Shown here: positions 10,528 through 35,965 of the stretch, piece after piece
Numbering within the stretch: the first letter of the stretch is position 1
How the letters are laid out: each line of letters starts with the position of its first letter
From: an uncultured Verrucomicrobiae bacterium
GTDB lineage: Bacteria > Verrucomicrobiota > Verrucomicrobiia > Limisphaerales > Palsa-1400
Assembly: GCA_963764165.1 (NCBI GenBank)
Contig: CAVXRD010000002.1
Location: forward strand, 64,001 to 128,000
Direction: 5' to 3'
Length of the DNA stretch: 64,000 nucleotides
Translations under genes and position numbers: made by a program
Notes under the pieces: generated by a model
What the model saw: the letters and a program-made list of their open reading frames with translations, nothing else
The model's database searches: none
What the model was told of the DNA's origin: nothing

Positions 10528-10829
10528 TGGAACGTGCCCACATCGACGGTGGAGTTTCCGTTGCCGAAAGCTGTGAACAGAGCCTTCACGATGACCGGCG
10601 CACCCGCGATGATGAGGCCGCCGATGATGGAGAGTTTGCCGGCGTCGGTGTCCCCGCGCCGGATGGCGAATCCCCCGCCAATGACGCAGAGCGTGCCGAA
10701 CAGGAATCCAATGAGCATGACGATGCCCAAGGCCGATGACGCGCCCGAGGACAAGCTGCCTGTAGAGGCAGCTTGCGCCAGGAGCGGTGCGAATCTTGCG
10801 ATAGCTAATGTTTTCATAACGTCGCTCAT
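10524..10829 (-). CDS. TrbC/VirB2-like pilin (start may be ATG 10817)
   Basis: ~100 aa, leader plus two hydrophobic helices, first gene of the tra operon. Confidence 0.75.
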   Translation of the reverse strand: MSDVMKTLAIARFAPLLAQAASTGSLSSGASSALGIVMLIGFLFGTLCVIGGGFAIRRGDTDAGKLSIIGGLIIAGAPVIVKALFTAFGNGNSTVDVGTFQ

Positions 10830-10853
10830 CCTAGCGAAAGTTTGCAGGGGGTC

Positions 10854-10871
10854 TGTTCAGACTTCTGAACA
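10854..10871. promoter_or_regulatory. Palindromic box 1 TGTTCAG-ACTT-CTGAACA between divergent pilin and AAA ATPase genes
   Basis: Perfect 7-bp arms; 20 bp from TAGGAT (minus strand) and 20 bp from TTCAAT (plus strand). Confidence 0.75.
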
Positions 10872-10903
10872 ACATTCAACTTTTTTTCGGCTTCAATGGA
10901 GGC

Positions 10904-11821
10904 ATGAATAATATTCTCGAATCGAAGCCGGATTCCCTCGGAAAACTCCAATCTCTTGAAGCCCATCTGCGGGAGCGGATTCGCGGGCAAGACCACGTTT
11001 TGCCGCGAATCATTTCTGTCCTCCAACGCGGTGAGTTAGGGCTGACCAAATCGGAGCGGCCCAAGGGAAGTTTTCTTTTCCTTGGGCCTACAGGCGTGGG
11101 AAAAACAGAAGTAACACTGGCGTTTACAAGTTTCCTCCTGAGCAGTCAGCACGTTTTTCGTTTTGACATGTCCGAGTATCAAACACAGGACCGTTTGCCG
11201 CTCCTGCTGGGAAATTCGCAGAGTGAACCGGGAATGCTTTCGGCGGCTTATTCCCGCTTCCAAGTTGGAACATTATTGTTCGATGAAATCGAGAAGGCCC
11301 ACCCCCGTGTGCTTGACCTTGCCCTGCAAATGCTCGATGCGGCCCGCATCACCATCGCCACAGGTGAAACGCTTGACTTGAGCGGTTACTACATCGTCTT
11401 CACGTCAAATATAGGCTCTGCCGATTTGCTCAATCTTCAACACTCCAGCGCCGCGACGATGGAGCGGCATGTGTTGACGCGAGCGCAACAATCGTTGCGC
11501 CCAGAAATCTACGCTCGCATCACTGAAAAATTGGTTTTCCACCGGCTCAGTTACGATCACCAATTGGAAATTGCGCGGCTCATGTTGGAAAAGGAGTTGA
11601 AGTTTTTGCGGCAGAAGGGCTGTTGTCTGGAAGCGGATGCGTCCGTTCTTCCGTTTCTGGTGCGGCAGGGATTCCATCCAAAGCTCGGCGCTCGCCCCAT
11701 GCGTGATGCTGTTGAAAAATATGTCGGCGATGCTGTCGCCACCGATTTACTAACCGATGGGAGCGGCTCTGGCCGTATCAGCGTGGACCAATCCGCTCGA
11801 TGTCTCGTGGTTCGGCAATGA
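10904..11821 (+). CDS. Stand-alone ClpA/ClpB-type AAA+ ATPase (second NBD plus D2-small only)
   Basis: RIRGQDH, FLFLGPTGVGKTE, RFDMSEY, LLFDEIEKAHP, TSNIG, GARPM. Confidence 0.9.
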   Translation: MNNILESKPDSLGKLQSLEAHLRERIRGQDHVLPRIISVLQRGELGLTKSERPKGSFLFLGPTGVGKTEVTLAFTSFLLSSQHVFRFDMSEYQTQDRLPLLLGNSQSEPGMLSAAYSRFQVGTLLFDEIEKAHPRVLDLALQMLDAARITIATGETLDLSGYYIVFTSNIGSADLLNLQHSSAATMERHVLTRAQQSLRPEIYARITEKLVFHRLSYDHQLEIARLMLEKELKFLRQKGCCLEADASVLPFLVRQGFHPKLGARPMRDAVEKYVGDAVATDLLTDGSGSGRISVDQSARCLVVRQ

Positions 11822-11824
11822 TAT

Positions 11825-11999
11825 TGCGCTGATTGGCGGTTTGCGGACGCGTGAGTGGAACACGCCAAAAGGGGAAAGGGTTGGCTTCGTGGAACGGCGC
11901 GTCCGCAAACCGCCAATGAGCGCACACCAAACTCTGTGCGGCTCACTTTTGTCTCTCGCCTTCGGGAAGGGCAAGAGGGCGGAAGGCGAGAGTCAAAAG
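11825..11999. other. Cluster of long inverted repeats (structured non-coding DNA/RNA)
   Basis: Perfect 20-bp IR 11832-11851/11898-11917; 17/18-bp IR 11946-11963/11982-11999. Confidence 0.8.
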
Positions 12000-12011
12000 C
12001 AGCCTCCAAGA

Positions 12012-12413
12012 CTACGCCAGCAACAGGTACATGTGCTTTTCACCAGCATCGGTCTCAGGTGAATAGCCCGCTTTGTCACCTTGTTCTTTGCACCACCGGA
12101 ATATTGCGTTCCTCAGTTTGGTGTCGGCGGGCAATTCCATCACCAATTTCTCGGTGTGCTGACTGCCATTTGGCCGAGCCTTAATGTCCACGGCAAGAAT
12201 TTTAACAGCCCCAGCGGCGTATAATTCCTTCACAATTTCGAGAGATTGTTTTGTCCCTTTGAATGGGCCGAGGGTTCGTTGTCGTGCCGCCTGGCTCTCA
12301 TTGAGCCAGCGTTCCGCTTCAGCTTTATGGGACGAACGCAATAGCCTTTCGATAAGATGTAGATGATCGCTGCTGCCGGGCTGTACGCCACTCAAAATGG
12401 ATTCGGAATTCAT
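12012..12413 (-). CDS. Hypothetical protein
   Basis: ORF with GAAGG RBS before ATG 12413, downstream of box 2. Confidence 0.7.
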   Translation of the reverse strand: MNSESILSGVQPGSSDHLHLIERLLRSSHKAEAERWLNESQAARQRTLGPFKGTKQSLEIVKELYAAGAVKILAVDIKARPNGSQHTEKLVMELPADTKLRNAIFRWCKEQGDKAGYSPETDAGEKHMYLLLA

Positions 12414-12468
12414 TATGCCTTCAAAATTTGCAAATTGCGTGATCACACTATAGCCCAAGAATAATTAC

Positions 12469-12490
12469 GTTGTTCAGCTACCTGAACAAC
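12469..12490. promoter_or_regulatory. Palindromic box 2 GTTGTTCAG-CTAC-CTGAACAAC
   Basis: Perfect 9-bp arms; core is 20 bp from TAGTGT on the minus strand. Confidence 0.7.
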
Positions 12491-12573
12491 CCCTCCAAGC
12501 CTGACGCCACGCGTTCCTGCACGATTGTCAACGATTCAATATCTCGGTCAGAAAAACAGCACATTGCTGTTCC

Positions 12574-13290
12574 TCATTTCGATAATCTGAGCCGAAAAAA
12601 CATTGCGTTGGTTGAGATGGGAAAAGTTGCTCGTCCTCCCGAAAACGGACCAGCAAACGGTTTCCAACTGGTTTCGCTGAGGTTCGACTTGGATTCGACA
12701 AATACATTGCCGTCTGCCCCGAACCACAGTGCCTGCATCGTCCCATTAGTTTGGCCGGTCTGAAGCGATACGACGAATGGCCCGGATCGCCATCCGACCG
12801 GTCCAACAAACATTGAAGGATTTGATTGGACTGTTCCTGCATTTACAAAGCCTGCCGACGTGCCCAAAAGGCCGGTCAACATTTCAACACCCGGCGGGTA
12901 ATCCACGGCGAACATGACCTCCTGCGTCTTGGAGGATGAAATATACATTTCGGGGAAAGAATCGGACGCGTATAAATTCCAGAAGCATGAGTTTGTATCG
13001 CTCTGGAAAAAATCATAGCTCCAAAACCCCGCTGAGTAAAACATTGCTGGCTGACTCAGTGAATAAATGTTGGAGATGGTAAAAGCGTCTATCTGGTCGT
13101 TTGTCGTGTCATTCTCGATTTCGACAGCTACGACCGTAAAATTCGATCCAAAGTAAAGCGGCGCTTGGCCCTCCATTTGAAACGATTGGGCGTCTGCCGA
13201 ACATTCGAGACGCCAAAGAACAAATGCGAGTCCTATGCAACCAAACCAAAACCTTGCGCCAAAAAGTCGCTGTAAAAAGCTTGGTCGCAC
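12574..13290 (-). CDS. Secreted protein with C-terminal '...FFRLR' domain
   Basis: Signal peptide; C-terminus VESKSNLSETSW...NAMFFRLRLSK. Confidence 0.7.
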   Translation of the reverse strand: MRPSFLQRLFGARFWFGCIGLAFVLWRLECSADAQSFQMEGQAPLYFGSNFTVVAVEIENDTTNDQIDAFTISNIYSLSQPAMFYSAGFWSYDFFQSDTNSCFWNLYASDSFPEMYISSSKTQEVMFAVDYPPGVEMLTGLLGTSAGFVNAGTVQSNPSMFVGPVGWRSGPFVVSLQTGQTNGTMQALWFGADGNVFVESKSNLSETSWKPFAGPFSGGRATFPISTNAMFFRLRLSK

Positions 13291-13307
13291 TTCAGCCCTT
13301 CAGGATT

Positions 13308-14280: not shown

Positions 14281-14283
14281 TTT

Positions 14284-14493
14284 TTATTGATTTTGGACAT
14301 CGACAATGCGGCTTGGATCAAATGGTATATCCTCGCTCGTCCCGACTTTCACAATTTCTTTTGCCCACGCGATGAATACATCACGAATTCTGGTGCCGTC
14401 CTCCAAGACGACAATGACGCGGTTAACGCCATATTTGTATTCGGGAAACGTGGCTACTTTGTCCTGTAATTCTCTTGGCAATTCGCGGTTCAT
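14284..14493 (-). CDS. Probable immunity protein for the Rhs toxin
   Basis: 69 aa, no signal peptide; ATG overlaps the toxin stop (TAATG). Confidence 0.75.
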   Translation of the reverse strand: MNRELPRELQDKVATFPEYKYGVNRVIVVLEDGTRIRDVFIAWAKEIVKVGTSEDIPFDPSRIVDVQNQ

Positions 14494-17400
14494 TAAAATC
14501 CTTTGGGGAAAATGACTTCTTGAGCGCCCCCAACCCCTCCGAACTCTCCTCCTGGGACGATGCCTCTTTGTATGGGCGTTCCAGGTGGTGGCCTAAGGAT
14601 TCGGAAATATTGAGGTGGCTTTCCGGGAAGATCCCCGAAATTCTTGAGTGCGGCGGGGTCTTGTCCGATGGCGTTGAATGCAGCTTCTGGAAACGCATAA
14701 GTTCCCGGTTGAGCCCCACTCAAAGAACCGGAGCCAAATTTTAGATTAACGGGGCCTGCACCAACGCGCACGAAGGTCTCACCCGCTTGGGTTACATCGG
14801 GTGTTTGAACGCTCGCGCCATTTGCGAACGGAAACTCCATCTGGGTGGCGTTAGCTCCTCCGGTGCCTGTGGTGGCTGTGGCCGTTGGTGTAGGAGCAAC
14901 TCCTGAAGGCTTGGAACTCGTGTTTAGGGAATTGCCAAAATCGAATTCTAACTGCGTTGCAGCAGACGCGTCGCCATCCCTAAGGGCCCCGAGGGCAGAC
15001 AAAAGCGCGTTTCCGGCAGGCGTAGGAACATATTTGAAACTTAACGGGTCCATTCCTGCTTCCTGCATTCCTTGCACACCAGCAGAAAGAAAGAGTGAGC
15101 CGAGAGAGGCATCTTGGGCGGCGGTAAAATCGCCTGTTGCAGCGGCTTCACCAAAGCCTTTTCCCATGCCGTAAAGGCCAAGACTCCCAATATTTGCCTC
15201 CGCTTCTAAAGTTCCCATGAGAATATCACTAGATGTCGGCCCGGCACTTGGGTTGTTATAGATATTCTGATATAACTGGCTGAACCCCTGATAGTCACCC
15301 CCTGCGCCACCTAACGCCCAAGCAGTCTGCGCCGTCATGTCGTAACCTATCTCCCCTGCTTGAGCTAAGCCATTGACAGTTCGGGCACCTAAATTGTAGC
15401 TGGTATTCGCGACTCCACCCCAAAATACCCCACTGGAAAGGGCGTCCGCATCCAGTGCCCCCTCCTTATAAATATTCCTGGAGACGCGTCCATCTGCGTC
15501 GAAATAAATCGCAGGATTTCCACCGAACGCCGTGTTCAAGGCCTCGTCAGAACCGTGCCCGAGGGGGTCAGCGCATAGGAATGCCCGGCGTGTGAAATCA
15601 TAGGGACGAAAACCCAATTGAGCGAAGCCTGCGGTATTGATCGCGCGACTACGCCAAGCCAAACTGGCAAAGGCTGGAGATGCTAATGAAAGGCGCGGGG
15701 GACTGTAACCGTCTGCGGGCCCGTAAAGGCTCAGTCTCGCCGAGTTCCACGACAAAACGCCATTGGTTATACCGGCTAATACATTTCCAAATCCATCCGA
15801 AATGATGCCCGACGTCAAGTTTACCGACGCGGTTCCGCTAGTGATTTCCTCGATCCCACCCACTCCTTGCATCCCGCCGTAGTGGCCACTTGTATCGGGC
15901 CCATACGTAAGGATATCCTGTCGGAAGTCACTGCCCTGACTAAGACTAAGAATAACTGGCTGGAATTGAATTTGAGGATCATATTGGTACCCAATCGTCA
16001 ACGGCTCTGGTCCACTCGTCAGAGCAATGTTATTGCTTACAGTTGTTTCAACCGTTTGGACCTGTCGCCCGAGAGCATCAAAAACTACTGCCAAATTAAA
16101 ACCATTATTATTTGTGTCACGCTCGTTAACCTTTACCAGTCTATTGAAAGCATCCCAAGTTAAGGTTTGTACTTTAATAAGCTGGCCACTTCCATTCTTC
16201 CATACAAGATTGGTCACATTACCTGAGCCATCGTACTGGCTACTTACTTGGTCTGCCGCGTTAGAACCGACGGTAAACGCACTAACCCGATTTGTAGTAA
16301 ATAGACCGCCCGGATGATCGGCATACACTGCAAGCGTATTCGTCCCTCTTTGCAGACCGAGTGCGGCACTCCACTGGCTAGCGCCTCGTCCATCGTAACG
16401 CAGATCTAGGGGCTGTCCGTTGAGATACCCACGCAGCGTCGCTGCACCGTTAACATGCCCAGTCGCCACCCGTTCAATAATGGTATTTGTCCCAGTTATA
16501 ATGCGTGAGAAGGCATCAACTCCGCCCATCCAGGAATTTGAGCTCGCAGACAACTCCGAGGCTGATGTCAAGACGCCTAAACCAGCGGCGACACCATTAT
16601 CAAATGTATATTTGTTCGTAAGAGAACTGGCACCAGCGAGATTAAAGCTCTCTTGCGTCAGCTTCCTCGTCAATGGAGCGTAGGAAAAGTTGCGTGTGTC
16701 AGTGAAATCACCCCGCGTTGCCACATAATTTGATGGAGAGCCATCATCCAACCACTTCCATGTTTCCGTCATTTCCGTCGTACCGAAGACCTTTGTGGTC
16801 ATCTGGAGTGGGCGGCCTATTGAATCTCTCGAATCAACGCTTACTGATCGGAAAGCGTTAGTCCGACCCGTAAGCAATCCGTTGTCCGCATATGCGTAGG
16901 TGGCATCGTTCATCGCGGTCATTAAGTTGTCTGCGCGGTATTGAAAACTCATGCCGGATGAAACTTGAGTCCTTCTTCCTGCACTGTCCCATTGCTGACT
17001 AATCGTGGCTGGCACGCCGCCCACCGTCAGGGTATCACTGCTCAGTTGGGAATAGGCATCGTACGATCGTTGAATGGACGTGGCTACACCCGCATTTGTG
17101 TTTACGTAAGCTTGAGTGATCGACGACACCAAACCGCGTGGTTCGTATTGCCAAACAATGGACAACTGCTGCTCAGGAAGCGAGCCGGCGGTAGTCGTAT
17201 TTGTAATACGCAGGAAATCATCATACAAATTCGTTCTAGTCACCCCTCTTTGATCAGTGACTGACTGAACCAAACCCGGCCACGCACTGCTATAGTACGT
17301 GTAAACATTTGTTCTCGTACCCTGCGCCCCTGTCTGGTCCCACTCGTTCAACATCTGACCAGCCGAGGAATAGGTGGCGGACCAAGTAAGATTTCCGGGC

Positions 17401-20400
17401 ATCGCGCGGTTGGTAAGATCGTTTAATTGATCGTAACGATAAGTCGTAGTAGCATAATCGCGTGTCGTTTCCGTTTCGATCCGGTTTAACCCATCAAAAG
17501 TCCACGATGAGAATGACCATAAGATTAAACCGCTTGATGCTTTGTCATGTTCGATTTCATTACCAGAGAGATCATATCTATGGAGATCGTAATCCAGTTT
17601 CCCGCCACCAGGAGAAGATGCTGTGAGAAGCTTACGCCCATCATTGTCAAGGTAGGTGGTTGTGCTAATAGCACCACCGCCAGTTCCTTCCGTGACAGTG
17701 ACACTGTGATGATCAGCAGAATAGACGTTTGTGGTAACATGTAATGGTGTTAAGCTGCCGGGAGCAAACACCTGCACCGAGACTTGACGGCCCAGAGCAT
17801 CCTTGGTCGTGATCGTTTTCTCGCCCAAGGTGTTGGTAAAGGTCAAGACACGCCCGCTCCCGTCATAAAAGAAGGTAACCGATTGCTGCGATATATTAGT
17901 CGTATAGGTAGGGGGGCCAGCCGGGTTTAGCCCGGAAACAATACTATCAACAGTAACTATGGCCGGACCGGACTCGATTTTCACCCGATCCAAACCGTCA
18001 AACGAGCTCACAAATATGTTTCCAAGCGCGTCTGTTTCTTGAATTGAGTTGCCTCGCCTGTCCAATTGAACTGAATTCGTTCGCAATGGGACTCCCAAGG
18101 CGGAATAAATTACTTTGGTCGTAAGCCGATTAAAATCATCGTAGGTCGTCTGGACGTACGCGCCGTTGCATTGAAATTCGCGGTAAATCCGACCGTCTAG
18201 GTAATAGCGCCAAGCATTCGTTGAGCCATCGGCGTTGTGTCTGTATTCAGGTTGTCCCGCAGCAGTGTACTCAGTTTCAGTAATGCCTCCCAAAGCATTC
18301 GTATGGTAGCGAAGAAGTCCGCCTGGCTCATACCCAAAAGTTTCGGATGACAGTAACGTGATTCCATCCACGTCGAAAAATTGCCGTCTCGTTAAGCGAC
18401 ATAGCGAATCCCAAGTGTTGCTGGTGATTGCACCACGAGGATCAACAGTCCGGGTAAGATTGCCAAGCGTATCGTATGAATTGAACGTCTGAGCATAAAG
18501 ATTGTATCCGGCAGGCGCCTGAACCCCCGATCCGTCCTGCTTCGCCTCGCAACGCCAGTGGATTTCTGTTGTTGGTCGACCGGCCCCATCATAATCATGC
18601 CAGATATAATCTTCCGGGTTGTAGCGCGGACCATCCACCCAAGTAAGTTCCCCATTTTCATTGTAATAATTGAAATTCCATGAGAGCAGATTGCCGCCTT
18701 CGTCGAAGTTTTCCTGTTCAGTCCGACGGCCCAGATCGTCGTAAGCAAATTCCGTCGTGGCACCCAAAGCGTCGCTTTCATCTACAAGTTGGCCACGCTC
18801 GTTGTAAAGGAACGTGTTGGTAATGGAAGGATCGCTAGTGCCCGAGTAAGCGACGCTTTGTGTTAGGAATCCCTGGCCATTGTAGGTGAAATCATTGGTT
18901 GCGGCATCTGGCGAACTGTAAGCACGAACAGTTCGCACCAATAGGCCACATGAAAAATTCGTCTGGGTTATTGAGCCGAGGATGACGACGTTTGTCGCGT
19001 TTGCGTATAGCTGCAAATTTGTAACGATAGGGTTAAGACTGGCGTAACGTATCGTTTGCGCGGGCAGAAAGGGAAATTGAGTGTCGTAAACATAAAAAGT
19101 GCTATTTCCCACCGGATCCGTGCGCTGCAACGGTAAACTGTTTGTGTTGTACACTGCCGTATTCGTTGCAGCTTGCGTAAGAATTCCATCTCCCGATATG
19201 TCACCCGTTATAACCGTATTTGTAATATTTCCATTCAAATCGTATTTGAATTGTGTCCAAATTCCACGCTTGTCCTTGCGTTGAGAAACGCTCCGTGGGT
19301 ACCCAGGCGCGGTCGCGTTGTCTGCATACCAAGATTGTTGGATAGTCTGCCCGAACGGGTCGGTCACCTGCGTAATAAGGCTGTTGGTGTAATCGTAACG
19401 GTTGGTTCCATTATTTCCGTCAACGACCGTCGTGTATCCACTTATGGCGTTGGTGGCTGAATTGGTGAGATTGAAGTTGTTAGAATAGTAGAATGTGGCT
19501 GTTCGTATCGGATTCAGATCTATGCCTGCCGTAGACCATTGGTTGGTGACGCGCCGCTGACTATCATAGGTGTTTTGCAACACTCTCCCATTGGGGTTGT
19601 CCTCTTCTGCGATGAGATGCGTCGAGAATAGTTGTTGCGTCACTGCGGAGCCATTTGTCACAGATTGGGTCCCGTGGAGATACTGGTAAGAACGGGTCGT
19701 GCCATCAGGCAATGTGACGCCTATCAGATCGCCAAATTTGTCATATGCGTAAACCAATCGCCTTCCGTCGCCGCAATAGGCTTCGATGATGTGTCCGTAC
19801 ACGTCATAATAAAAGCCCAGAAAGTTTCCGTTACTACACTGGATTCTTCGCACCTGGCCAAAATCCGGTTGGGAAGGATCGGAACCGTAAGTGAATGTGT
19901 AGAAATTCCCGCAATTATTTGTCCAAGCCAGCATGTATGGACGGGTCTGATTGAGAACCCCGTTGTTGAATGTAATGTACTGAAACACTCGGATGCTGCC
20001 GTCCGCCCCATATAAGGCGAAATTCGTTGTTCCGCTGGTGACCGTTTGGACAAGGCGGTCGCGTAACCGATTCACAAGCCCACCAACACCGGAGGAAGTA
20101 TTGTTTACAAGCTGGGGATTAGCAGCGGTGGTCGGCATCCAAAGATTACTGTTTGTAGGTGACTGAACATAACTCAGAACAGCTCCATCCATATCTGCCG
20201 CGTAAATATTTAGATTGCTCTGCGCGACACTCAAATATGGTGCGATGCTAAACTTCCAGCCTGATCCGAATTGGTTATCTGCGAGATTGAGACTTGAATA
20301 GTTTCTTCCCAATGAAAGCGGAATCGGGCCAGCCAGTTTCAAATCAACCTCGCTGACATAAAACTCGCCAGTGATATTGTTGACGGGATCGGCAACCTGG

Positions 20401-23400
20401 CTCATTAACTGCGAACCCATGTCGCTCAAAGTTCCCCAAAAGCCTTTTTGCTGAGTTTGCTGGACGTCTTGAGCAAGATTTTGGTTTTGAGTGCTCTGCG
20501 CCGTGAGGTCCAAGGACGACTGAACATTGGCAGACCACGCTGAGTCATAGGGTGTTGCTGCATAATCCCCGCTGAGAATTTGATTATACACCTGGGCCGA
20601 ATTGAAATTGGCGATCTGGTCTGGCAGCAAGGTGGTGCCGGAAGTTGGTGCTTGGAAGGTGAGTGTGGCAGTATCACCCATTGTTAAATTGTAATTAACC
20701 GCATTGCCTGGGGTTACGGAGTTGTTCGGCAGATTTTCTCCGAACGCGCCATTCAGGCTGTTTGGCGAAATTACAGCAGCCTGTTGATTAAACCCAAAAA
20801 CGAAAGCGCCCATGCCTGAGAACGCAGAGTTCGAAACAGGCCCTGGAGTTATGTAGGCTGTTACAAAACCGTAGTCATTGTTGTTGTTTTGAAAGGCAGA
20901 AACCACTTGATTCCAGACGTAAGGGTCAAAAGTTTGGAGTTGGCTGCCCTGGTAAACTGTTGATCCCTGCGAGGCGTAGGTATTAACACTGAGTGGCACA
21001 ATCCCTAGCCCCCGGCTTTGGGCCAATTGCAAAAGACGAACAGTGGAGACAGCATTGGATTGCTGGTAATAGTCGTTCAGGACCTGGTGTTCCTCGGCGG
21101 AACCGTCCACGACTCGAATCAAGTTGTAATTTTGCGTTGCTGTTTCAATGGACTGGCCCGAATCAGGCCGAGACGAGGCGTTGCCGACAGTCGCAACATC
21201 GTAGTAAAACATATCCACCGATGGAAGCACAGAGTCAACGGTGCCGTTGGTTAAATTGCCCGAACTGTCGCGAAGCGGCCCCAAAATCGACAGACCCGCC
21301 GCCCAAGTCGAGAGTGTATCAATCTTATGAAAGTTGCGATTGACTTGGTCAAAGTCACTAACATTTTTGTAATATGACATCCCCGCGAGATAGAGGGTGG
21401 CCCCCTGATAAACGTCTGGGGAAATGCTTGCCGTTGGATTTGTTCGCAGCGTGTTTTCCATCTGCCACAAATCTTCCGCATGAACATTCAGCATGTCTTG
21501 GGTAACTCGCCCATAATCCAGGCAAATAGCGGCCAATTCACCTTTGCGCAAGGGCCGTTCCATCACGATATTCCGGTCGGCAGCATAACCCAAGTAAGTC
21601 GAATATGGGTTTATTGCATACGATGGACTTAGGGCCCGATGCCGATTATATACGAACCTTACCCATAGCTGGTCGTCAAATTGGTCTAAGTTTATCGAAA
21701 GAACCTCTTTGGAGAGCAATGTCGAATCGTTTGTGAACGAATACTGTGTCGCAATATTGGTGCGAAATGGGGACAGAACTAAACTCAACAAGATTTGATT
21801 CGTAATATTGTTTGTAGCTGTAATATAAAATTGCCGATTGTGCAAATCGGTCAGACGCATTGGACCAGTTTGAATATCTTTGTGTGGGTCGGTTTGGCTG
21901 TAGATTTCCAGGCTGAACGTATCAAATACGTTAGTCATGAGCGGATCAACATTCGTAATGGAATTCGCGGATAGACTCTCCACTGTGTAGCTCGTGTTCG
22001 TCAAAAATGTTGGGGTTGGAAAATCCTGCCAACGAGAATAATTATGCCGACGCGGTAGAATCTGCATTCCAATATCATCCACGGAAACACCCGGATAATT
22101 TTGCAGGAGCGTCTGCGCTAAATACTTGGGAAAAATCACCCGCGGCGTGTTGTCCCCGTTCGTCGCAAGAGACAATATGTTTGAAGCTCCATAAATATAG
22201 TCCTTCGCCCAGCCGTACGCACTGCTGTAATTTGTTGGCATGTACTCATAAAGGTTGAGTCCTTCGACCATCTGATAGTCCTTGAGCCAAGGGAAAATAT
22301 GAACCCAATTGGTGCCGATGTAGGCAGCAACCCACGGATAATTGACGGCGATCATCGTGTTGCTCGAATAAAGCTGCCCGGCGTCGTTGAAGCTTCCGTG
22401 AACTTGGAATCTCAACATTTGACTGAGACGCGCATCGAGAATTTGAAGCCCGTTGTGAGCCGGAAACATATAGGTGGCGGGGACGCCAGCCTGACGAAGC
22501 AAGTAAACAAGAAGCGCGCACTGCTCGACCGGCGATCCCTGCTTCTCCAAAAACACGCCAAGTGCGCCGCGCGAGACTCCGCTGGGATTGACGGATTGCT
22601 CGGAAACAGTTCCATCATCATTGTAGTCCATCGGATCAGTGAGGTCTATATCGTTCAGCACGTAATTCGCCAAGGCCATCGGATCGTTTCCCATGTCAGC
22701 CACGAATTGATCGATGACTAGGCTGCGACGTAGTTCTGGGCTCTGGTCGATGTTGGTGCAAGCCGATGGCGACAGGCCGACGGAATTGTTGACGGGCGGC
22801 GTATTGGTTAATATTTCGTCGAGAGTCATGCCTGCATAAAAGGGCGGCAATGGATTGCCATTAAATTGAGGTTGGTCAATCATGGTTGCACGCCACGGCG
22901 GTCGCTGCTCAAATTCGAGCGAATAGAGGTACGAAGGGGCTACGTAGCCATTGGTGTCCTGAGCCATTCCAATTTGGTACGAATCGTTCGGTAATCCATA
23001 TTGAAGAATCAGATAATAGTAATTGGTCGCGGAGCTGCTGGCCGTATGAGTAAGCGTATATGCACCAAGTGTGGTGGCACCGAACGACAATTTCGGAGTC
23101 GTCGAAAGAACGGTTGTCAATCCGTATCCAGAAGCCGTTACCTGAAGTCCGTTGCTGGTGAAATTATTCCAAGAGTTCGTGTTGGAGAAATTGGGTGGAT
23201 ATAAATCCGTCTCTCCCGCAAAGGAGAAGTTTGTTCGGAAAAAGGCCAAAATCTTGAGAGGGGTTCCAACTCCAACCGGATCGCCAGCATATATCCCAAA
23301 ATTGTATTCCTGACTCAAATAAAGCGGAGTGCCCCCTACGCGTTCACCGAACGAAACAATCGGATTATTGAAGGGAATTCGATTGGTCCAATTTGTTTGG

Positions 23401-25448: not shown

Positions 25449-25463
25449 AATTGCAGTTGTTGG

Positions 25464-26087: not shown

Positions 26088-26399
26088 ATGCCCGGCATCG
26101 GACATTACGAAACGATACGAAAGGAAATTATTCGACTTTTGCGCCTCGAACGCGAGCGTCGAGGGCTCTCTAATTACGTCGTGGCGCAACGTTCCGGGGT
26201 CTCTGAATCCATGTTGAGTTTGGTTGAGCGGGGACTTAGAAATCCAACGCTCGAATTGATGCTGCGTGTTGCGGACGGAATCGGAGTAAACTTGGCCTAT
26301 TTTATCGAAGAAGCCCAACAACCTGCTCACAGAGTCACTCCAAAAGGGCGCGTCAGAGGAAAACAACAAACCGCAAACAGCTCGCCTCCCAAAAAATGA
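26088..26399 (+). CDS. XRE-family HTH transcriptional regulator
   Basis: RERRGLSNYVVAQRSGVSESMLSLVERGLRNPTL. Confidence 0.85.
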   Translation: MPGIGHYETIRKEIIRLLRLERERRGLSNYVVAQRSGVSESMLSLVERGLRNPTLELMLRVADGIGVNLAYFIEEAQQPAHRVTPKGRVRGKQQTANSSPPKK

Positions 26400-27032: not shown

Positions 27033-27048
27033 TATTCAACACTGTCAA

Positions 27049-27530: not shown

Positions 27531-27588
27531 GGTGCGTTGAGTCCGCGCCTTTTCCGTTCCTGGATGTTCGTTAAGAAGAAAGAGAGAA

Positions 27589-28188: not shown

Positions 28189-29685
28189 TTAGGCTCCCAA
28201 CCCTGCCAACCAGCGGCGCTTGTACCACCGAGAAATCTTTCCATCGGCCTCCAGTGGCGGAAGGACCGTTTTTTTTAGTCCGCGTTCGCAATGCACCAGC
28301 ACGCATTGATGCTTTCTCAGGTTGCGCAATTCGTATGGTTTCATTTTGTGTTCGTCCTGGTCGTAATAATTGCGCGTGGTCGTTCCGTTGGAATAACCCC
28401 AACTGCGTTTGGTCACTTTTTTCTGCCCAAGAAAATCGGCGCTGTCCAAAGCTCCCGCTTCGTCGGCAGCTTTGAAAATGATTCTGTTGCGCAGATTCAG
28501 CGTGAAAACCTTGGCTTTGTCGGCCCCAAGTGGCGGGATGAACGAGGTCGCTGACTGAGCGGCCGCAACCATCGTGGCCCGAGCTTCCCGAATTACGTCG
28601 ATGGAATTGAAATCGCTCATGCCGTCTTCGCTGGCCGTCACAAACCGCTGCGCCTCGTCGGCCCACAGAATGAGCAGATTATCGTCGGCTCGCTCCTGTT
28701 TGGTGTGGTCAAATCGCCGCAGAACGTGCGTGTAAAAAAGCATTTTGAGATACGTATTCACGTAACGTCGCTCCATTTGATATTTCTGCGGCATCGAAAC
28801 GCAGATAATTTTCCCGTGGTCGATGTCTGAAAAGTCAAACGTGTTGCTTTTGCCGATGGGGCAGAACACCTCAGAAATGTCCGGGGCGGCGAAGCATTGA
28901 AGATAGTTGCCGATGGTTTCCCGAACACCACCGATTTGCTCGGGCGGCTGATTCTGATAACGATTGACAAAGTGATCCCGCAGTTCATTCCGCCTCTGGG
29001 TGCGATGGCTTTCAGCCAAAGTCTTCATGGCTTCGTCGAGATCATTCTTGTCGAGCAAGATGCTGAGGGCGTTTTCCAGCGTCACGTCACCCGCAATTTC
29101 GTAAAGCAGTTCCAGCGCAAAGGCGATGTGGGTTTGGGCCTGCGTTTTGAAAAACCCTTTGTCTCCCTGCTGGCCCAAGCTGCTGGCCGAATCGACCACA
29201 AATTTGGCGAACGTGCTGAACGGGATACCCGGCGCGGACGTGAGATTGTATTTATGCTTCGGCTTCCAGTCTGAACGAGCATTGTCCGGTCTGACTTGCA
29301 AGAGAATTAAATCCCGCTCTCGGTTGAAGTGTTTTGCCATCGCTTCCAGCGTTTCCCAATAAATGCCTTTGTCGTCGATGCACAGACCGCCCCAACGCGG
29401 CTCGTTCTTGAAAACTTGATAGAGCAACTGGTTGATGCCGGAACGAGTTTTCCCTGAACCCGTGTCGCCCGTAATCAGCCAACCTCGGCAGAAATCCTCT
29501 CGCGACCATGAAAGCCCATTAAGCCGAACAATTGCCTTGGTGCCATTTCCCCACAGGAGAACAAAACCAACTACCCCTGCCGCCAGCAACAAAGCCCAAT
29601 CCCATGAAGGGATATGCGCCAGACTCCGCCACAGCGCAGCCGCTTCGCTGGCCGTCCCCCTCAAGATGTGATTCAAAGCATTCAT
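28189..29685 (-). CDS. Type IV coupling protein (VirD4/TraG/TraD-like)
   Basis: N-terminal TM, Walker A GDTGSGKT, Walker B WADEAQ, AAQS. Confidence 0.88.
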   Translation of the reverse strand: MNALNHILRGTASEAAALWRSLAHIPSWDWALLLAAGVVGFVLLWGNGTKAIVRLNGLSWSREDFCRGWLITGDTGSGKTRSGINQLLYQVFKNEPRWGGLCIDDKGIYWETLEAMAKHFNRERDLILLQVRPDNARSDWKPKHKYNLTSAPGIPFSTFAKFVVDSASSLGQQGDKGFFKTQAQTHIAFALELLYEIAGDVTLENALSILLDKNDLDEAMKTLAESHRTQRRNELRDHFVNRYQNQPPEQIGGVRETIGNYLQCFAAPDISEVFCPIGKSNTFDFSDIDHGKIICVSMPQKYQMERRYVNTYLKMLFYTHVLRRFDHTKQERADDNLLILWADEAQRFVTASEDGMSDFNSIDVIREARATMVAAAQSATSFIPPLGADKAKVFTLNLRNRIIFKAADEAGALDSADFLGQKKVTKRSWGYSNGTTTRNYYDQDEHKMKPYELRNLRKHQCVLVHCERGLKKTVLPPLEADGKISRWYKRRWLAGLGA

Positions 29686-30047
29686 AAAAGAAACCGGCCC
29701 AGGACAAAGCCGGTAATCAGACAGGCCAGCGACGCGATCAAGATGGCAGTGACTTTGCCGTGGGCCAATTCCTCGCGGAATTTTGGAAAGGCGCGCAATT
29801 CCTCGGTGACGCTCCCGGTTTGCTTCGTCAATTCTTTGATGAGTCGGTCGGTTTGTTCCAAAGTGTCCCGAAACTCCGTGTATGAAGGCGGCGGCGGGTT
29901 GATAGGGCCATTGCCGTAGCGATGATTGAAGTAAATTTCCAGCAGCTCCAAGATGGCCGTCGTCGGGTCGTTCTCACGGATTTTGTGCTTCTGCTTCCAT
30001 TCCGCGATGGATTTTTGGAGCGAGATGGTGACTGCGGTTTCGTTCAT
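29682..30047 (-). CDS. TraM/StbC-like protein with C-terminal TM
   Basis: Third gene of a traK/L/M-like arrangement; ENDP motif; C-terminal hydrophobic helix. Confidence 0.55.
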   Translation of the reverse strand: MNETAVTISLQKSIAEWKQKHKIRENDPTTAILELLEIYFNHRYGNGPINPPPPSYTEFRDTLEQTDRLIKELTKQTGSVTEELRAFPKFREELAHGKVTAILIASLACLITGFVLGRFLL

Positions 30048-30739
30048 ACAAGAAGAAGTTCCTGGGCAGATTGAAGTTGTTCGTTAAAACGCCGTTGCCA
30101 GTTGAGCAGGCGTTGCCGGTCAATGATCGAGCATTTGTCGGACTGCCCACCCTGGCTGACGGTTAAATTCTCGGCGTTCAGCTTGGCCACCAGCCAACCG
30201 TATAGCGGGGGCATCATGATTTCCTTGGCCCGCAATTCGCCCACCACCTTTTTCCGCGTTTGGCTCTCGTCATAAAGTCGGAAGTCTTCGCACAGGCCGT
30301 AATTCTTGACCACGACATAGGCGCTTTGATCTGACAGCACCTCGGAAAGCAGTTGCACTTGCCCCACCGCGTCCGCGTCGTGAGAAATCGGGATGATGAC
30401 GGTGAGTGACGCTTTCAACTTTCCAAGCAGTTCGGCAAATCCGACTTCGCCGAAATAGGCCAGAAATTGATCGGTCGAGGCGGCGCGTCCATCCACCACT
30501 ACCAGTGGTTGAACATCCAGCGAAGTGAAAATGGCATCCATTTCCTGCTTCTTGTCCAAATTGACGAACACCGCTTCGGGATGCGCTCGTTTCAAGCTGG
30601 AATTGGCGTTATCCGTGTCGATGGCGACATGGGGTTGATTTTGGTCTTTCAGGAATTGCACGAGGTTGACGGCAAAGAAACTTTTGCCGACGCCTCCTTT
30701 GGCATTCAGGACCATGATGATTCGTTTTTTTGTGCTCAT
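30044..30739 (-). CDS. ParA/MinD-like ATPase (TraL/StbB type)
   Basis: Deviant Walker A AKGGVGKS, IDTD, VVVDG; start ATG 30739 overlaps the upstream stop. Confidence 0.8.
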   Translation of the reverse strand: MSTKKRIIMVLNAKGGVGKSFFAVNLVQFLKDQNQPHVAIDTDNANSSLKRAHPEAVFVNLDKKQEMDAIFTSLDVQPLVVVDGRAASTDQFLAYFGEVGFAELLGKLKASLTVIIPISHDADAVGQVQLLSEVLSDQSAYVVVKNYGLCEDFRLYDESQTRKKVVGELRAKEIMMPPLYGWLVAKLNAENLTVSQGGQSDKCSIIDRQRLLNWQRRFNEQLQSAQELLLV

Positions 30740-31107
30740 AAACTTTTGGGATCGACCACGCGCGGGCCGGTGGGTGCCTGGTAACGTCCTGTTCTGCGTT
30801 GGTCGGCCAGCGCCTTGGCGGCGGTCATGCCGTTGCTGGACGCACAGCGTACCTTTTGCTTTCGTTTGCTGCCGCGACTTTCCGGTTCGGCTAAAACGAG
30901 GTGGCAAAAGCGGGCCACGGTATCAGCCGAGACGGCCACGGCGGTTTGGGCCAAGTAGGTGCGAATGATTTCGTAGGACGCTCCCTTTTTTCGGGCTTCC
31001 GCAATCGAATCCCGGAATTCCAGCAGGAGCCGCAATTTGGCCGGTCGCAGCGATGGGTGCTGCTGAATCAAGTTTTCAAAAGCGTGGCGTGAATCGTTGG
31101 CGTCCAT
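30736..31107 (-). CDS. Small basic DNA-binding protein (TraK/StbA-like)
   Basis: FRDSIAEARKKGASYEIIRTYL...VSADTVARF HTH-like pattern; first gene downstream of the iteron array. Confidence 0.6.
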   Translation of the reverse strand: MDANDSRHAFENLIQQHPSLRPAKLRLLLEFRDSIAEARKKGASYEIIRTYLAQTAVAVSADTVARFCHLVLAEPESRGSKRKQKVRCASSNGMTAAKALADQRRTGRYQAPTGPRVVDPKSL

Positions 31108-31123
31108 AGATCAAACCTCGAAA

Positions 31124-31410
31124 TGTCGTTTGTTCTTGCGGCAGTCCTGCGGCAATCGTCGTCGAAGCATCGTTGGCCGCGGCGGGAGGTGTGCGGCAAG
31201 TTTCGTTGAAAAATCGTTGAGGTCTGCGGCAATCTTGCGACAAAGATCGTTGGAACTTGCGGCAGTCCTGCGGCTAAAGTCGGTGAATTTTGCGGCAATG
31301 CTGCGGCAAAGATCGTTGAAACCTGCGTCAATATTGCGGGACGGATTGTTGAAGTTTGCGGGAGACTTGCGGCAAAAATCGTCGAGACTTGCGGCGAGTT
31401 TCGTTGGCCA
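31124..31410. repeat. Degenerate 33-bp tandem array with 11-bp internal periodicity (TCGTTGA/TGCGGCA/TGCGGCA)
   Basis: Units start at 31211, 31244, 31277, 31310, 31343 and 31376, with degenerate copies to the left. Confidence 0.85.
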
Positions 31411-31504
31411 ACATCTAACGGACGTTAGAGGTCGGGCGTCCCTTCCTTTTTCATGGGCATACAGCGAATGCACGCCCACAGTTAAGCACAGTCCATTCTG
31501 TGCA

Positions 31505-31527
31505 GTTGTTCAGGCTTCTGAACAATC
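31505..31527. promoter_or_regulatory. Palindromic box 3 (GTTGTTCAGGCTTCTGAACAATC)
   Basis: Core 31507-31524 lies 21 bp from an extended -10 TGnTTAACT on the minus strand, facing the traK-like operon. Confidence 0.75.
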
Positions 31528-31869
31528 GGACTCCGAACTGAGGCAGCGCAATGCGCTCATTTCATCTGCGTCAGATTCACATTATCTGGCTTCAGGACCA
31601 CGGTCTTTTCGCGATGTCGCCACCCATTTTCAGCGATTTTCGATTGGTTTAACAAATGGGCGATCATCGGCTTTTTGTGCGATGCAGTCCTGCGAAAAAA
31701 CCCCATACGCAGCCTTGGGTGGGGAATAGCAAAAACCCCCAATTGGCTGAGGGCCAGAGCACAAAAAACTGCTTGTGCAGAGGTTGATCAACGGGCAAAC
31801 TCGCCACGCTGGCAAAAGGCTCGAAGGAGTCAGGCAATTAATGTAATTTATAATAGGACAATAGGACGT

Positions 31870-32673: not shown

Positions 32674-35357
32674 AAGGACCAATGAGTGAATCGGACGGGG
32701 CTATAAAAGCCGTCCCGTTGCGAGCACTCGGCCTGGAAATCATCGAGAGCATTGATCTGCCCGTGCTGGTCATCGGGTGCGATTCCAAAATCTCCGGTTT
32801 TAATCAGGCCGCTGCCACACTGTTCTCGCTTCGTCCATCGGATGTCGGACGATTGGCCCGCGAAATCCGCATTTTGTCGAGCATTAAGAGATTTGAGGAC
32901 CTGTGCGCGGATGTGATCGGGGGCGGGCCAGCGTCCCAAGGCGAAGTGCGCGATACGAATGGATGCTGGTTCGTTCTCAGAATCGCAGCTTATCGGGGAA
33001 GCGATCAACAAATTAACGGCGCAGTCCTCACGCTCACCAACGTGACTGCCGTGCGTGAGAGCCTGGAACAAGCAGTGCATGACCGCGAGTACACGAAAGC
33101 GATCCTCAATACAGTCATTGATCCATTAGTGGTCCTTGATGAAGATTTACAGATTCAGACGGCAAATCAGGCGTTTTATACAATGTTACAGGTATCCCGC
33201 GAAGAGACACGCGGCGGCCGGCTTCCTGAGTTGGGAAGCACGGATTGGGTCATTGCGTTAGAGACGTTGCTGAAAAATAGCCGCTCCACGGATCTACCTG
33301 CTACCGCCATAGAAGTGGAGCATGAGTTCCCAACAATCGGCCATCGGAAGGTTTTGCTCAACGCACGTCCCATTTCAGGAAAGGGCAATTTCAAGCCCTT
33401 GATTCTTCTTTCGATCCACGACATCACGGAGCGCAAACGAGCGGAAGAAAGGTTGCGTGAGAACGAGCATCGCTTCCGCCAGATGATTGAGGCTCTTCCT
33501 GCGGCTGTATATACGACCGACGCTGAGGGCCGGCTTACTCATTTCAATCAAGCCGCTGTGGAGTTCTCCGGGCGCGTGCCGGACCTTAGCACGGACAAAT
33601 GGTGCGTAAGTTGGAAGCTCTATCGGCCTGACGGCACTCCCCTGCCTCACGACGAGTGCCCGATGGCCATTGCCCTGAAGGATGGCGCCACGATTAGCGG
33701 CGTGGAAGTCATTGCTGAGCGCCCTGATGGAACACGCGTCTGGTTTACGCCTTACCCGACGCCATTTCGCGACGGTGACGGGAGAATCGTGGGAGGCATC
33801 AATATGCTGGTGGACATCACTGAGCGTAAAAAGGCTGAGGAAGTGACCGCGCGACTTGCCGCAATCGTCGAGTATTCGGACGACGCAATCATTAGCAAAG
33901 ATCTCAATGGCGTTATTGCTACTTGGAATGAAAGTGCGGAGAGGCTCTTCGGTTACACAGCGCAAGAAGCCATCGGCCAACCCGTAACTATGCTCATTCC
34001 CTCAGAGCGCCTTGATGAGGAGCCTGGCATTCTTGAACGCATTCGAAAAGGGGAGTCTATTGAACATTATGAAACCATTCGGCGTCGAAAAGACGGAAAG
34101 CTTCTCGACATTTCGCTTTCGGTATCACCCATTGCGGACAGAGCAGGTCGCGTCGTAGGCGCGTCGAATATTTCCCGCGACATCACCGCGCGCAAACAAA
34201 TAGACCAAGCGTTGCGGGCATCTGAAGAGCGTTATCGCAACCTTTTTCGGTCAATTGATGAAGGGTTTTGCATAGTTGAAGTGGTTTTTGACGAGAACAA
34301 GAAACCGGTTGATTACATTTTTTTGGAAATCAATCCGGCTTTCGAGCGACAAACCGGAATCCAGAACGCCCACGGCCGAAGCATGAGGGAAATTGCGCCG
34401 CAGCACGAAGAACATTGGTTTCAACTGTATGGACAGATTGTTCTGACAGGCGAATCAAAACGGTTTGAATATCCGGCCGTCCAATTACAGCGCTGGTACG
34501 AAGGCTATGCTTACCGTATTGGCGAGGCTAACGTCAAAAAAGTTGGCATCATTTTCAACGATATTACGGAGCGCAAAAAAGCACAGGAAGTTTTGGAGCG
34601 CACCGTCACCGAGCGAACCGCCAAATTGCGCGCGACAGTCGAAGAGCTTGAGAGTTATTCCTACAGTATCGCCCACGACATGCGTGCGCCGCTTCGGGCG
34701 ATGCAAGGTTTCTCCGACATTCTGATCAAGGAATATGCTGCGAAAATCGATACTGACGGCCAGCGTTACTTGCGCCGAATTGCTCTGTCCGCAGACCGCA
34801 TGGATCACCTCATTGAGGATGTGCTTAACTACAGCAAAGTCGTCCGTGCGGAGTTGCCTTTGGAGTCGATAGCCATTGATACACTTTTACAAGGGATGCT
34901 GGAAACTTATCCTGTGTTCTTCCCGGATGAGGCCGATATCCAGGTGCAAACCCCCATGCCGAGAGTTGTCGGTAATGAGGCCGCTCTTACTCAGGTATTT
35001 TCAAATCTGCTCGGCAACGCGATCAAGTTCGTTACGCCCGGCCTCAAACCCATGATCCGCGTCTGGGCGGAGGAAGTTAATGTATCTTGTGCGTCCACTT
35101 CCTCGCACGATGGAATGAGTGGGAACGGTGAAGGCCGAGGCATTCGTTTTCTCGTGCAAGACAATGGTATCGGTATAGCCCCGGATCAGCACGAAAAGAT
35201 ATTCGAAATATTTCAACGGATCAACAAAAATACTCCCGGCACGGGCATCGGCCTAGCCATTGTCAAAAAAGCCGCGGAACGCATGGGGGGACGCGTAGGC
35301 GTGCAATCTTTTCCTGGCAAGGGAAGCACGTTCTGGCTAGAACTTCGAACGCCATAA
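32670..35357 (+). CDS. Multi-PAS cytoplasmic sensor histidine kinase
   Basis: About five PAS/PAC units (DITERK), H-box SIAHDMRAPL, NLLGNAIKF, DNGIG, GTGIGL. Confidence 0.93.
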   Translation: MKGPMSESDGAIKAVPLRALGLEIIESIDLPVLVIGCDSKISGFNQAAATLFSLRPSDVGRLAREIRILSSIKRFEDLCADVIGGGPASQGEVRDTNGCWFVLRIAAYRGSDQQINGAVLTLTNVTAVRESLEQAVHDREYTKAILNTVIDPLVVLDEDLQIQTANQAFYTMLQVSREETRGGRLPELGSTDWVIALETLLKNSRSTDLPATAIEVEHEFPTIGHRKVLLNARPISGKGNFKPLILLSIHDITERKRAEERLRENEHRFRQMIEALPAAVYTTDAEGRLTHFNQAAVEFSGRVPDLSTDKWCVSWKLYRPDGTPLPHDECPMAIALKDGATISGVEVIAERPDGTRVWFTPYPTPFRDGDGRIVGGINMLVDITERKKAEEVTARLAAIVEYSDDAIISKDLNGVIATWNESAERLFGYTAQEAIGQPVTMLIPSERLDEEPGILERIRKGESIEHYETIRRRKDGKLLDISLSVSPIADRAGRVVGASNISRDITARKQIDQALRASEERYRNLFRSIDEGFCIVEVVFDENKKPVDYIFLEINPAFERQTGIQNAHGRSMREIAPQHEEHWFQLYGQIVLTGESKRFEYPAVQLQRWYEGYAYRIGEANVKKVGIIFNDITERKKAQEVLERTVTERTAKLRATVEELESYSYSIAHDMRAPLRAMQGFSDILIKEYAAKIDTDGQRYLRRIALSADRMDHLIEDVLNYSKVVRAELPLESIAIDTLLQGMLETYPVFFPDEADIQVQTPMPRVVGNEAALTQVFSNLLGNAIKFVTPGLKPMIRVWAEEVNVSCASTSSHDGMSGNGEGRGIRFLVQDNGIGIAPDQHEKIFEIFQRINKNTPGTGIGLAIVKKAAERMGGRVGVQSFPGKGSTFWLELRTP

Positions 35358-35362
35358 GACCT

Positions 35363-35812
35363 ATGCAACTCAAACCGATTCTTTACGCAGAGGACGAAGA
35401 GGATGATGCCTTTTTTATGCAACGGGCCTTTCAGCAGGCTGACATTCCAAATCGGCTCATCATCGTTCCGGACGGTCAGAGCGCCATTGATTATCTTTCC
35501 GGGACTGGCCATGAAGCAGAAGGCAAGGAACGTGTGCTCCCTTGCCTCGTGCTGCTCGACTTGAACCTCCCTATCAAATCCGGCCTCGAAGTCTTGAAAT
35601 GGATTCGCACATGTCCCTCGGTTTCCGCAGTTCCCGTAATATGTGTGACTTCCTCAACCCAGGACTCGGACATTCATCGTGCATACATCATGGGGGCCAA
35701 TAGTTATCTCGTGAAGACGGCCAAGTCCGACAAACTGCTCGTCATGGTCAAAGCCATCAAGGACTACTGGCTGAATCAGGACCGCGCTGTGCAGGGTGGA
35801 ATGAATGACTAA
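35363..35812 (+). CDS. Single-domain response regulator
   Basis: ILYAEDE, VLLDLNLP, GANSYLVK. Confidence 0.9.
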   Translation: MQLKPILYAEDEEDDAFFMQRAFQQADIPNRLIIVPDGQSAIDYLSGTGHEAEGKERVLPCLVLLDLNLPIKSGLEVLKWIRTCPSVSAVPVICVTSSTQDSDIHRAYIMGANSYLVKTAKSDKLLVMVKAIKDYWLNQDRAVQGGMND

Positions 35813-35912
35813 ACAAAGCGGACTCCTTCCTCAGCTCCCAGTCCCTTTCCGCGAATAATTCCGTACGGCGAACTCGTCGGGCGCGCGCTGCTTGGAACGG
35901 AAGGGCGTTGAT

Positions 35913-35935
35913 GTTGTTCAGGCTTCTGAACAATC
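35913..35935. promoter_or_regulatory. Palindromic box 4, identical 23-mer to box 3, upstream of the relaxase
   Basis: Core 35915-35932 lies 21 bp from TGnCACAAT; GTG start follows 6 nt after the hexamer. Confidence 0.75.
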
Positions 35936-35965
35936 TTGCTCGGTAATTTGTGGCACAATTCGTGT

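Follow-up and report, generated by a model that had tools for sequence, protein, structure and literature searches.

A stretch of 64,000 nucleotides (the window) from an uncultured Verrucomicrobiae bacterium of the Limisphaerales (contig CAVXRD010000002.1, positions 64,001 to 128,000) was analysed, and its positions 1 to 40756 form the right part of a 55-kb integrative and conjugative element (ICE), 14.3 kb more of which lies to the left of the window. The ICE encodes a type IV secretion system (T4SS), a coupling protein, a MOBF relaxase and a tyrosine integrase, and a 43-bp repeat of the tRNA-Lys 5' part marks its two ends (G000:C2:49669 and 104715); attR is the 5' part of tRNA-Lys(CTT) at 40715-40756 (plus strand), repeated as attL at G000:C2:49669-49711. 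The closest relatives of the ICE are found in Verrucomicrobiia/Limisphaerales, and 66 of 401 genomes from the host order have VirB10 relatives, for which a species-wide collection gives 384 loci. The subject of this analysis is the palindrome TGTTCAG-N4-CTGAACA (the box), which precedes the transfer genes of the ICE, and the small XRE protein that probably binds it.

Box 1 (10854-10871, TGTTCAG-ACTT-CTGAACA) is common to two divergent promoters and has the same position in relatives. Its minus-strand side has a predicted -10 hexamer TAGGAT (10828-10833) at 20 nt and faces a likely target operon (1984-10817, minus strand; Pfam and NCBIfam matches), in which the pilin gene, starting at 10817, is followed by genes for VirB3-like, VirB4, lipoprotein, VirB5-like, VirB8-like, VirB9, VirB10, orf193, orf134 and TnpV-like proteins, the VirB3, VirB5 and VirB8 labels being putative and given from position and likeness. 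Its plus-strand side has a predicted -10 TTCAAT (10892-10897), also at 20 nt, and faces the gene of an AAA ATPase made of the ClpB D2 domain only (10904-11821, plus strand), which is likely leaderless and encodes no helix-turn-helix (HTH). Box 2 (12471-12488) lies 20 nt from TAGTGT (12445-12450, minus strand) before orf148 (12012-12413, minus strand), a conserved hypothetical gene with no HTH match and a weak YfbO-like lead; a version of this box with one mismatch is kept in G205 and G401. Box 3 (31507-31524) is 21 nt from TGC-TTAACT (31480-31485, minus strand), before the likely target operon encoding traK-like, traL/ParA-like and traM-like proteins and the coupling protein (28189-31107, minus strand; Pfam and NCBIfam matches), where the traK and traM labels are suggested by position and the traL/ParA-like protein matches PRK13886 TraL at E 2.5e-10, below the cut-off. 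Box 4 (35915-35932) is 21 nt from TGG-CACAAT (35954-35959), before the MOBF (TrwC) relaxase-helicase gene (35966-38761, plus strand; likely leaderless from GTG 35966).

A fifth box of the same ICE, at G000:C2:52533-52550 and thus 11.5 kb to the left of the window, spans the XRE stop codon of a neighbouring gene; TATCTT follows 20 nt on, and the ATG of an excisionase-orf200-virB6 operon 33 nt on. The regulon also takes in this operon, which lay beyond the reach of an initial annotation of this DNA; that annotation had listed the four window boxes, all of them exact at the coordinates it gave. The XRE gene itself (G000:C2:52536-52838, minus strand; 100 aa), the inferred activator gene, has the excisionase gene, orf200, virB6 and orf83 as neighbours, starts with GTG after GGAGG and has no box of its own upstream.

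The box is rare and is confined to mobile elements. In the window, the four exact copies compare with a chance expectation of 0.0002, and the closest other matches have three mismatches. In the whole 7.0-Mb genome, there are six exact boxes with a spacer of 4 against 0.02 expected, and none at any other spacer from 0 to 11; five are in the ICE and one (G000:C1:1102066) is in a satellite element, both elements being integrated at tRNA genes. A site with one mismatch is found at C3:329215. The whole-genome scan gave no exact box before any host gene, and no box is found to the right of attR (40756), in agreement with the earlier remark that none was noticed in the right (host) part of the window. 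In a pattern scan of viral contigs, at least 120 loci were matched, with one site each among the 80 listed, and these were taken as chance. A third relaxase-bearing element of the genome (G000:C2, about 505500) has one CTGAACA half-site before its relaxase gene, with TAAACT 21 nt downstream.

In each of the six ICE promoters, the box is followed 20-21 nt on by a -10-like hexamer, and the best -35 candidate (spacing 16-18 nt) agrees with the consensus in 1-3 of 6 bases, so that the five hexamers and distances of the initial annotation, together with its remark that a good -35 is missing, are correct. The last three bases of the box overlap the -35 position, a TGn extension is present in two of the six promoters only, and no second box copy is found at any of the six (best match 4-5 of 8). 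Sites centred near -42 thus appear to replace the missing -35 at transfer and excision promoters alike. Two of the start sites predicted earlier, 10904 and 35966, coincide with start codons, the ATG of the ATPase gene and the GTG of the relaxase gene, and the translation from GTG 35966 (VLAWKTQ...) matches the N-termini of related relaxases.

The same arrangement recurs across the family. From 67 loci with pilin and ATPase genes (some fetched twice), 42 distinct, unambiguous TGT...ACA palindromes of 17 or 18 bp were obtained, the remaining loci being duplicates or having imperfect or register-shifted boxes, TGCTC-type boxes, or none. On the pilin side, a TA at offset 20-21 was found in 36 of these 42 relatives, and any other offset in three at most. 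On the ATPase side, 41 of the 42 have a start codon (ATG or GTG) at 32-34 nt, which fits a leaderless mRNA starting 6-7 nt behind the -10 and supports the start sites predicted earlier. The stand-alone ClpB second-domain ATPase (10904-11821) is itself highly conserved and nearly always divergent from pilin across the ICE family.

The arms of the 42 palindromes differ by lineage and yet remain palindromic, both sides changing together. About a dozen half-site variants occur, including TGTTC, TGTAA, TGTGC, TGTGT, TGCTC and TGTCC, and each element uses one variant at its relaxase/traK, pilin/ATPase and excisionase promoters (five exact copies each in G404 and G406); in some elements, the same variant is also placed at orf148, methylase-helicase, XRE or integrase promoters. 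The boxes therefore mark a real, family-wide ICE regulon, and the class II activator geometry and dimeric binder proposed in the initial annotation are supported as well. Since different variants coexist within single host genomes (G190, G258 and G308), the binder should be encoded by the element. Two further arrangements were seen among relatives: an excisionase-orf200 fusion gene behind its own box in the G406 assembly (19143-20054, L312 region), and a plasmid-like relative with rep, parA and parB (G138:C42, L009) that has three identical, perfect, parS-like TGTTCAG palindromes outside promoter geometry (18338, 19563 and 21925) and an XRE gene with its own box.

The XRE family was the sole protein cluster present in all 13 elements first compared, where it is multi-copy. 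A genome-wide palindrome scan found box-like sites directly before the host's two stand-alone members of the family, one of which (G000:C1:1618099) has TGTTCTA-N3-TAGAACA as its own box. Of the 162 family genes for which sufficient upstream sequence was available, 45 are preceded by a palindrome of their own with a -10 at 20-22 nt (4.25 after shuffling). A training set of 40 stand-alone genes was obtained by removing two ICE targets from the 45 and then three likely chance rows from the remaining 43; in 20 of the 40, a second box copy lies 28-32 nt downstream, over the likely start site (0.22 after shuffling).

In the stand-alone genes, box bases 2-5 vary together with the recognition helix. 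Helix position 2 pairs with base 2 as R-G (28 genes), Q-A (3) and E-C (2), helix position 7 pairs with base 5 as K-C in 22 of 23 genes, and Gly at helix position 3 accompanies C3 in eight of nine. The helix type of the ICE (Arg2, Glu3, Lys7) goes with (T/C)GTTC boxes in all six listed stand-alone genes of that type. Rules learnt on the 40 genes were applied to 27 distinct, hand-picked ICE helix/box pairs, and the base-5 rule was correct for 13 of the 15 predictable pairs (5.9 after shuffling, p 0.0002, related elements being non-independent). When the 5-mer was instead read from the nearest stand-alone helix, it was correct in seven of eight close-neighbour cases, including that of this ICE. 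As a forward check, the TGCTC box predicted from the helix was found in G419 and G420, where TTTCA... had been wrongly taken as the box and was replaced by TGCTCCC; in G416, the XRE adjoining the relaxase has a helix type whose stand-alone counterpart bears the same 7-bp arm.

The sequence and fold of the ICE XRE point to controller (C) proteins of restriction-modification systems. Its best PDB profile matches include C.BclI (E 5e-7), C.AhdI (7e-6) and C.Esp1396I; HTH_3 and HTH_31 matches are below the cut-off. A structure model (predicted local distance difference test, pLDDT, 85.8) gives an XRE domain of five helices followed by an additional helix at the C-terminus, and a fold search with it ends near ClgR, BldD and C.AhdI, all at E > 0.001. 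Arg38 of the family aligns with the Arg of C.BclI HRTY. In C.Esp1396I, according to the accessible text of PMC3488213, R35 bonds the G of the outer TG, the operator has TG, GAC and TATA elements, and a flexible loop tolerates a one-base change of spacing; the contact and the loop fit the R-G rule and the 17- and 18-bp forms of the box, respectively.

It is proposed that the XRE protein encoded at G000:C2:52536-52838 binds TGTTCAG-N4-CTGAACA as a dimer centred near -42, where Arg2 of its helix, like R35 of C.Esp1396I, would read the G of TG, and Glu3 would go with TT and Lys7 with C5. The bound dimer would recruit sigma-70 RNA polymerase instead of a -35 element, and one box could serve two divergent promoters. 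With one dimer per box, the predicted targets are the pilus, coupling-protein, relaxase, ATPase, orf148 and excisionase operons, and no feedback on the XRE gene itself would be expected in this ICE. If each ICE lineage has its own helix/box pair, co-resident ICEs would be largely insulated from one another. From these sequence relationships, a box-bound activator is very probable, and the reading in which the named ICE XRE is the class II master activator binding the box is given a probability of about 0.72.

Several findings weigh against this reading. Regarding the promoters, the ATPase-side -10 is weak, with TA at 20-21 nt in 15 of the 42 relatives; seven of 20 exact sites in other genomes have no ICE gene nearby, and the three exact boxes of G138, in or close to rep and parB genes, lack a -10 at 20-21 nt. 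Regarding the code, the helix-3 to base-4 rule was correct for 12 of 25 pairs (9.5 after shuffling, p 0.17), and helix-3 to base-3 for 24 of 25, but shuffling yields 22.2; the ICE pairs all have R and G at helix 2 and base 2, so there is no variation on which to check that rule. The TGT(A/T)A lineage fits base 5 and mostly misfits base 4, the training set being without Asn7. Whole helices do not track 7-bp arms, and bases 6-7 are unexplained, one helix accompanying both TGTGTAT and TGTGTCC. Exact or near-exact boxes without an XRE of the family were found in G414 (77 kb examined) and G405 (the whole 60-kb contig). Many ICEs have two to four family members, of which the cognate was picked by hand and partly after the boxes were known, and the code statistics treat kin sequences as separate.

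Instead of activating, the same XRE could be a global repressor occluding the -35 region, with transfer beginning on its loss. KorA, ArdK and TrbA are global repressors of conjugative plasmids, XRE proteins are mostly repressors, the box does overlap the -35 position, and an XRE gene with a ribosome-binding site and without its own box would suit steady expression. Repression is nevertheless unlikely, because the spacing of 20-21 nt is held across diverged lineages although a repressor would not need it, a usable -35 is missing from every promoter (1-3 of 6) and TGn from all but two of the six in the ICE, and a satellite with three tandem box-promoters (described below) would be switched on whenever any single repressor was missing. 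The upstream box and second box over the start site of the stand-alone genes also form an activate-then-repress layout like that described in the available part of PMC2632904. An activator site with a different main binder is slightly less likely still; this binder could be the product of an unrecognised ICE gene, a cargo XRE (26088-26399), TraK, or a host-side member such as that at G000:C1:1618099. The absence of an XRE from the DNA examined in G405 and G414, the TGTTC half-site in the host-side XRE box and the presence of several XREs per element would all be accommodated. The helices of TraK do not follow the box type (14 sequences), however, and orf134, TnpV-like and AAA ATPase proteins are nearly identical across box types and lack an HTH, so that all four were rejected as binders. 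The cargo XRE has Glu2, which pairs with C and not G in the code, and gives no BLASTP alignment with the ICE XRE, and a host-encoded binder is at odds with the lack of exact boxes at host genes and with the coexistence of different boxes in one host. Also rejected as binders were orf148, for which no HTH match was found, and the excisionase, one helix of which accompanies both TGTTATG and TGTTCAG boxes.

A structural role of the palindrome, as a parS-like site or otherwise, with incidental promoter spacing is very improbable. The three identical, perfect copies in G138:C42 near or inside rep and parB genes, adjoining parA-parB, have that character, but no ParB match was obtained among the ICE open reading frames (ORFs) scanned, and all five ICE copies are at promoter distance, with the start codon kept at 32-34 nt throughout nearly all relatives. 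The least credible explanation, and one already contradicted, is an SOS repressor of the LexA type or a LexA-derived domain coupling transfer to DNA damage. The initial annotation had proposed such a link on the basis of the TGTTC/GAACA half-sites, which it equated with the reported half-sites of verrucomicrobial LexA, though with an 8-nt and not a 4-nt spacer. This link found no support: LexA (TIGR00498) and Peptidase_S24 gave no matches in the 97%-complete genome, both controls being positive in nine of 14 genomes, TGTTC-N4-GAACA occurs five times in the genome, no more often than with other spacers, and the half-sites vary among lineages.

The preferred reading, in which the ICE XRE activates from the box, also bears on the satellite element that carries the sixth exact box. 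This element (C1) is 33 kb long, lies at tRNA-Pro and has integrase, relaxase, traK/traL, XRE and excisionase genes, and VirB4 is encoded in the genome by the ICE only. Both elements duplicate the 5' part of their own tRNA gene (C1 copies at 1070383 and 1103232), and each partial copy has one extra base. Before the XRE-excisionase operon of the C1 element, three ICE-type boxes stand in a row, TGTAATG (C1:1101878), TGTCCGC (C1:1101965) and TGTTCAG (C1:1102066), each followed by a hexamer at 20-21 nt. In 12 such upstream regions of 500 nt each (from G000, G011, G055, G118, G156, G194, G205 and G261), 13 further ICE-type boxes were found against 0.6 expected, five regions having no extra box; nine of the regions had been picked by exact TGTTCAG sites, which are excluded from the 13, and complete, T4SS-free status was shown for the G000 element only.

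The XRE helix of the C1 element differs from that of the ICE, and three ICEs with the satellite-type helix carry GCTC-type boxes, the link being looser in one of them, where the ATPase locus is on a separate contig. The relaxase/traK gap of the C1 element contains TGCTCCC-N4-GTGCGCA, with TAGTTT at a distance of 20 nt and the relaxase ATG at 32 nt, and the G156 element has a similar box before its relaxase gene, flanked on either side by a hexamer at 20 nt, so the satellite's own XRE appears to drive its relaxase. T4SS-free satellites would accordingly sense helper ICEs by way of tandem boxes that represent several ICE types, and a helper XRE would induce the satellite XRE and excisionase, from which the signal would be relayed to the satellite relaxase and traK-traL via the satellite-type box. 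The joint proposal is held at somewhat better than even odds: ICEs would be run by a diversified set of C-protein-like master switches that match their boxes as keys match locks, the pairing following a readable helix-to-box code, and in satellites, promoters in tandem, each responsive to a different helper ICE, would control an excisionase and a second XRE, giving a multi-input, two-tier sensor.

Other features of the ICE and its genome are as follows. The tyrosine integrase gene (39157-40665, minus strand) has no box within two mismatches, and the integrase is boxed in G406 and G410. A methylase-helicase gene extends leftward beyond the pilin-T4SS operon; the TnpV-like ORF (1984-2317, minus strand) lies wholly within the start of this 1724-aa ORF in a different frame, and the relatives shown keep both frames open. 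The N-terminus of the methylase-helicase has a QLxLF-like motif that resembles a sliding-clamp motif, and in several relatives the N-termini of orf134, orf200 and the methylase-helicase have a common M-(L/I)-K-(R/G)-(N/K)-like start together with basic C-terminal tails, possibly secretion signals. The cargo includes a 3651-aa protein (14493-25448, minus strand) with Calx-beta, DUF6531 and RHS repeats, which looks like a polymorphic-toxin-type RHS protein, and the second, short, canonical XRE gene (26088-26399, plus strand). An imperfect direct repeat of 118 bp (about 31210-31393), located between box 3 and traK, is a candidate origin of transfer or TraK-binding region. Elsewhere in the genome, nine clustered tRNA genes (G000:C2:1559019-1561230) include one called with a TTA (stop) anticodon, and from G000:C1:185962 onward a palindromic unit is repeated 92 times with a period of about 72 nt, like a CRISPR array.

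The proposed circuit is a full, testable control scheme for a large, little-studied ICE family, and it points to one gene whose expression would be expected to set off excision and transfer; genetic tools for Verrucomicrobiota could follow from this. The circuit would widen the role of C-protein-like regulators from the timing of restriction enzymes to the running of conjugation, and the dozens of natural helix/box pairs offer a compact test set for protein-DNA recognition. If the proposal is true, the pairs are a natural set of orthogonal small activators, and multi-box satellites show how parasites of mobile elements broaden their helper range. In the literature searched, with most subscription papers outside coverage, no paper describing this system or a multi-input, two-tier helper sensor was found.

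Among known regulators, the C proteins C.AhdI, C.BclI and C.Esp1396I are alike in their XRE, lambda-cI-like fold and are the best PDB sequence matches of the ICE XRE, and an Arg at the R35 position accompanies a TG...CA operator in both, the contact in the ICE XRE being suggested by the portion of PMC3488213 that was available. As far as the accessible part of PMC2632904 goes, C proteins have an activating site just upstream of the -35, possibly acting via sigma region 4, leaderless mRNA is common, and autoregulation is of the activate-then-repress kind; one of the ten motifs of that paper may overlap with the present box. Unlike C proteins, the ICE XRE is longer at its C-terminus and has five additional residues ahead of the recognition helix, and no restriction gene adjoins it, whereas a C-protein gene lies upstream of a restriction endonuclease gene and controls it. 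C proteins have a 35-bp OL-GTG-OR pair in which OR occludes the -35, whereas ICE targets have a single operator and the second copy of the stand-alone genes is downstream of the -10. C proteins are under autogenous control from leaderless mRNA, whereas the ICE XRE gene has GGAGG before its GTG and no upstream box; stand-alone relatives and the ICE copy in G418 do have their own box. Because the ICE XRE differs in tandem operator, restriction gene and autoregulation, it is not filed as a restriction-modification controller. C-like proteins occur on ICEs, and QseC of ICEMlSym, in the part of PMC8789080 available, controls itself and an antiactivator and not transfer genes; QseC/QseC2 are the nearest such proteins on an ICE, and the ICE XRE would differ from them by driving six transfer promoters directly and by not being autoregulated here.

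TraR of Ti and repABC plasmids is similar in the size and position of its box, in the sharing of a box by divergent promoters and in lineage-specific pairs: the accessible text of PMC3907764 and PMC4700958 describes 18-bp inverted-repeat tra boxes at about -45 that overlap the -35, one box serving divergent promoters, and activator and box co-diverging into groups without cross-activation. TraR is, however, a LuxR-family autoinducer receptor, and of the ICE ORFs covered by the Pfam and NCBIfam scans, none showed a LuxR domain. SetCD (SXT/R391) and AcaCD (IncA/C), in the available part of PMC4542580, act as class II master activators in place of a missing -35 and turn on transfer and excision, their sites also being used by unrelated islands upstream of excisionase. 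They are FlhDC-like heteromers, unlike the ICE XRE, and no FlhD/FlhC-like match was obtained in the ICE ORFs scanned with Pfam and NCBIfam (the cargo ORFs at C2:56-60 kb partly so). As described in that part of PMC4542580, each island family follows one helper type, whereas the satellites here have rows of boxes for several helpers and would relay the signal via their own XRE.

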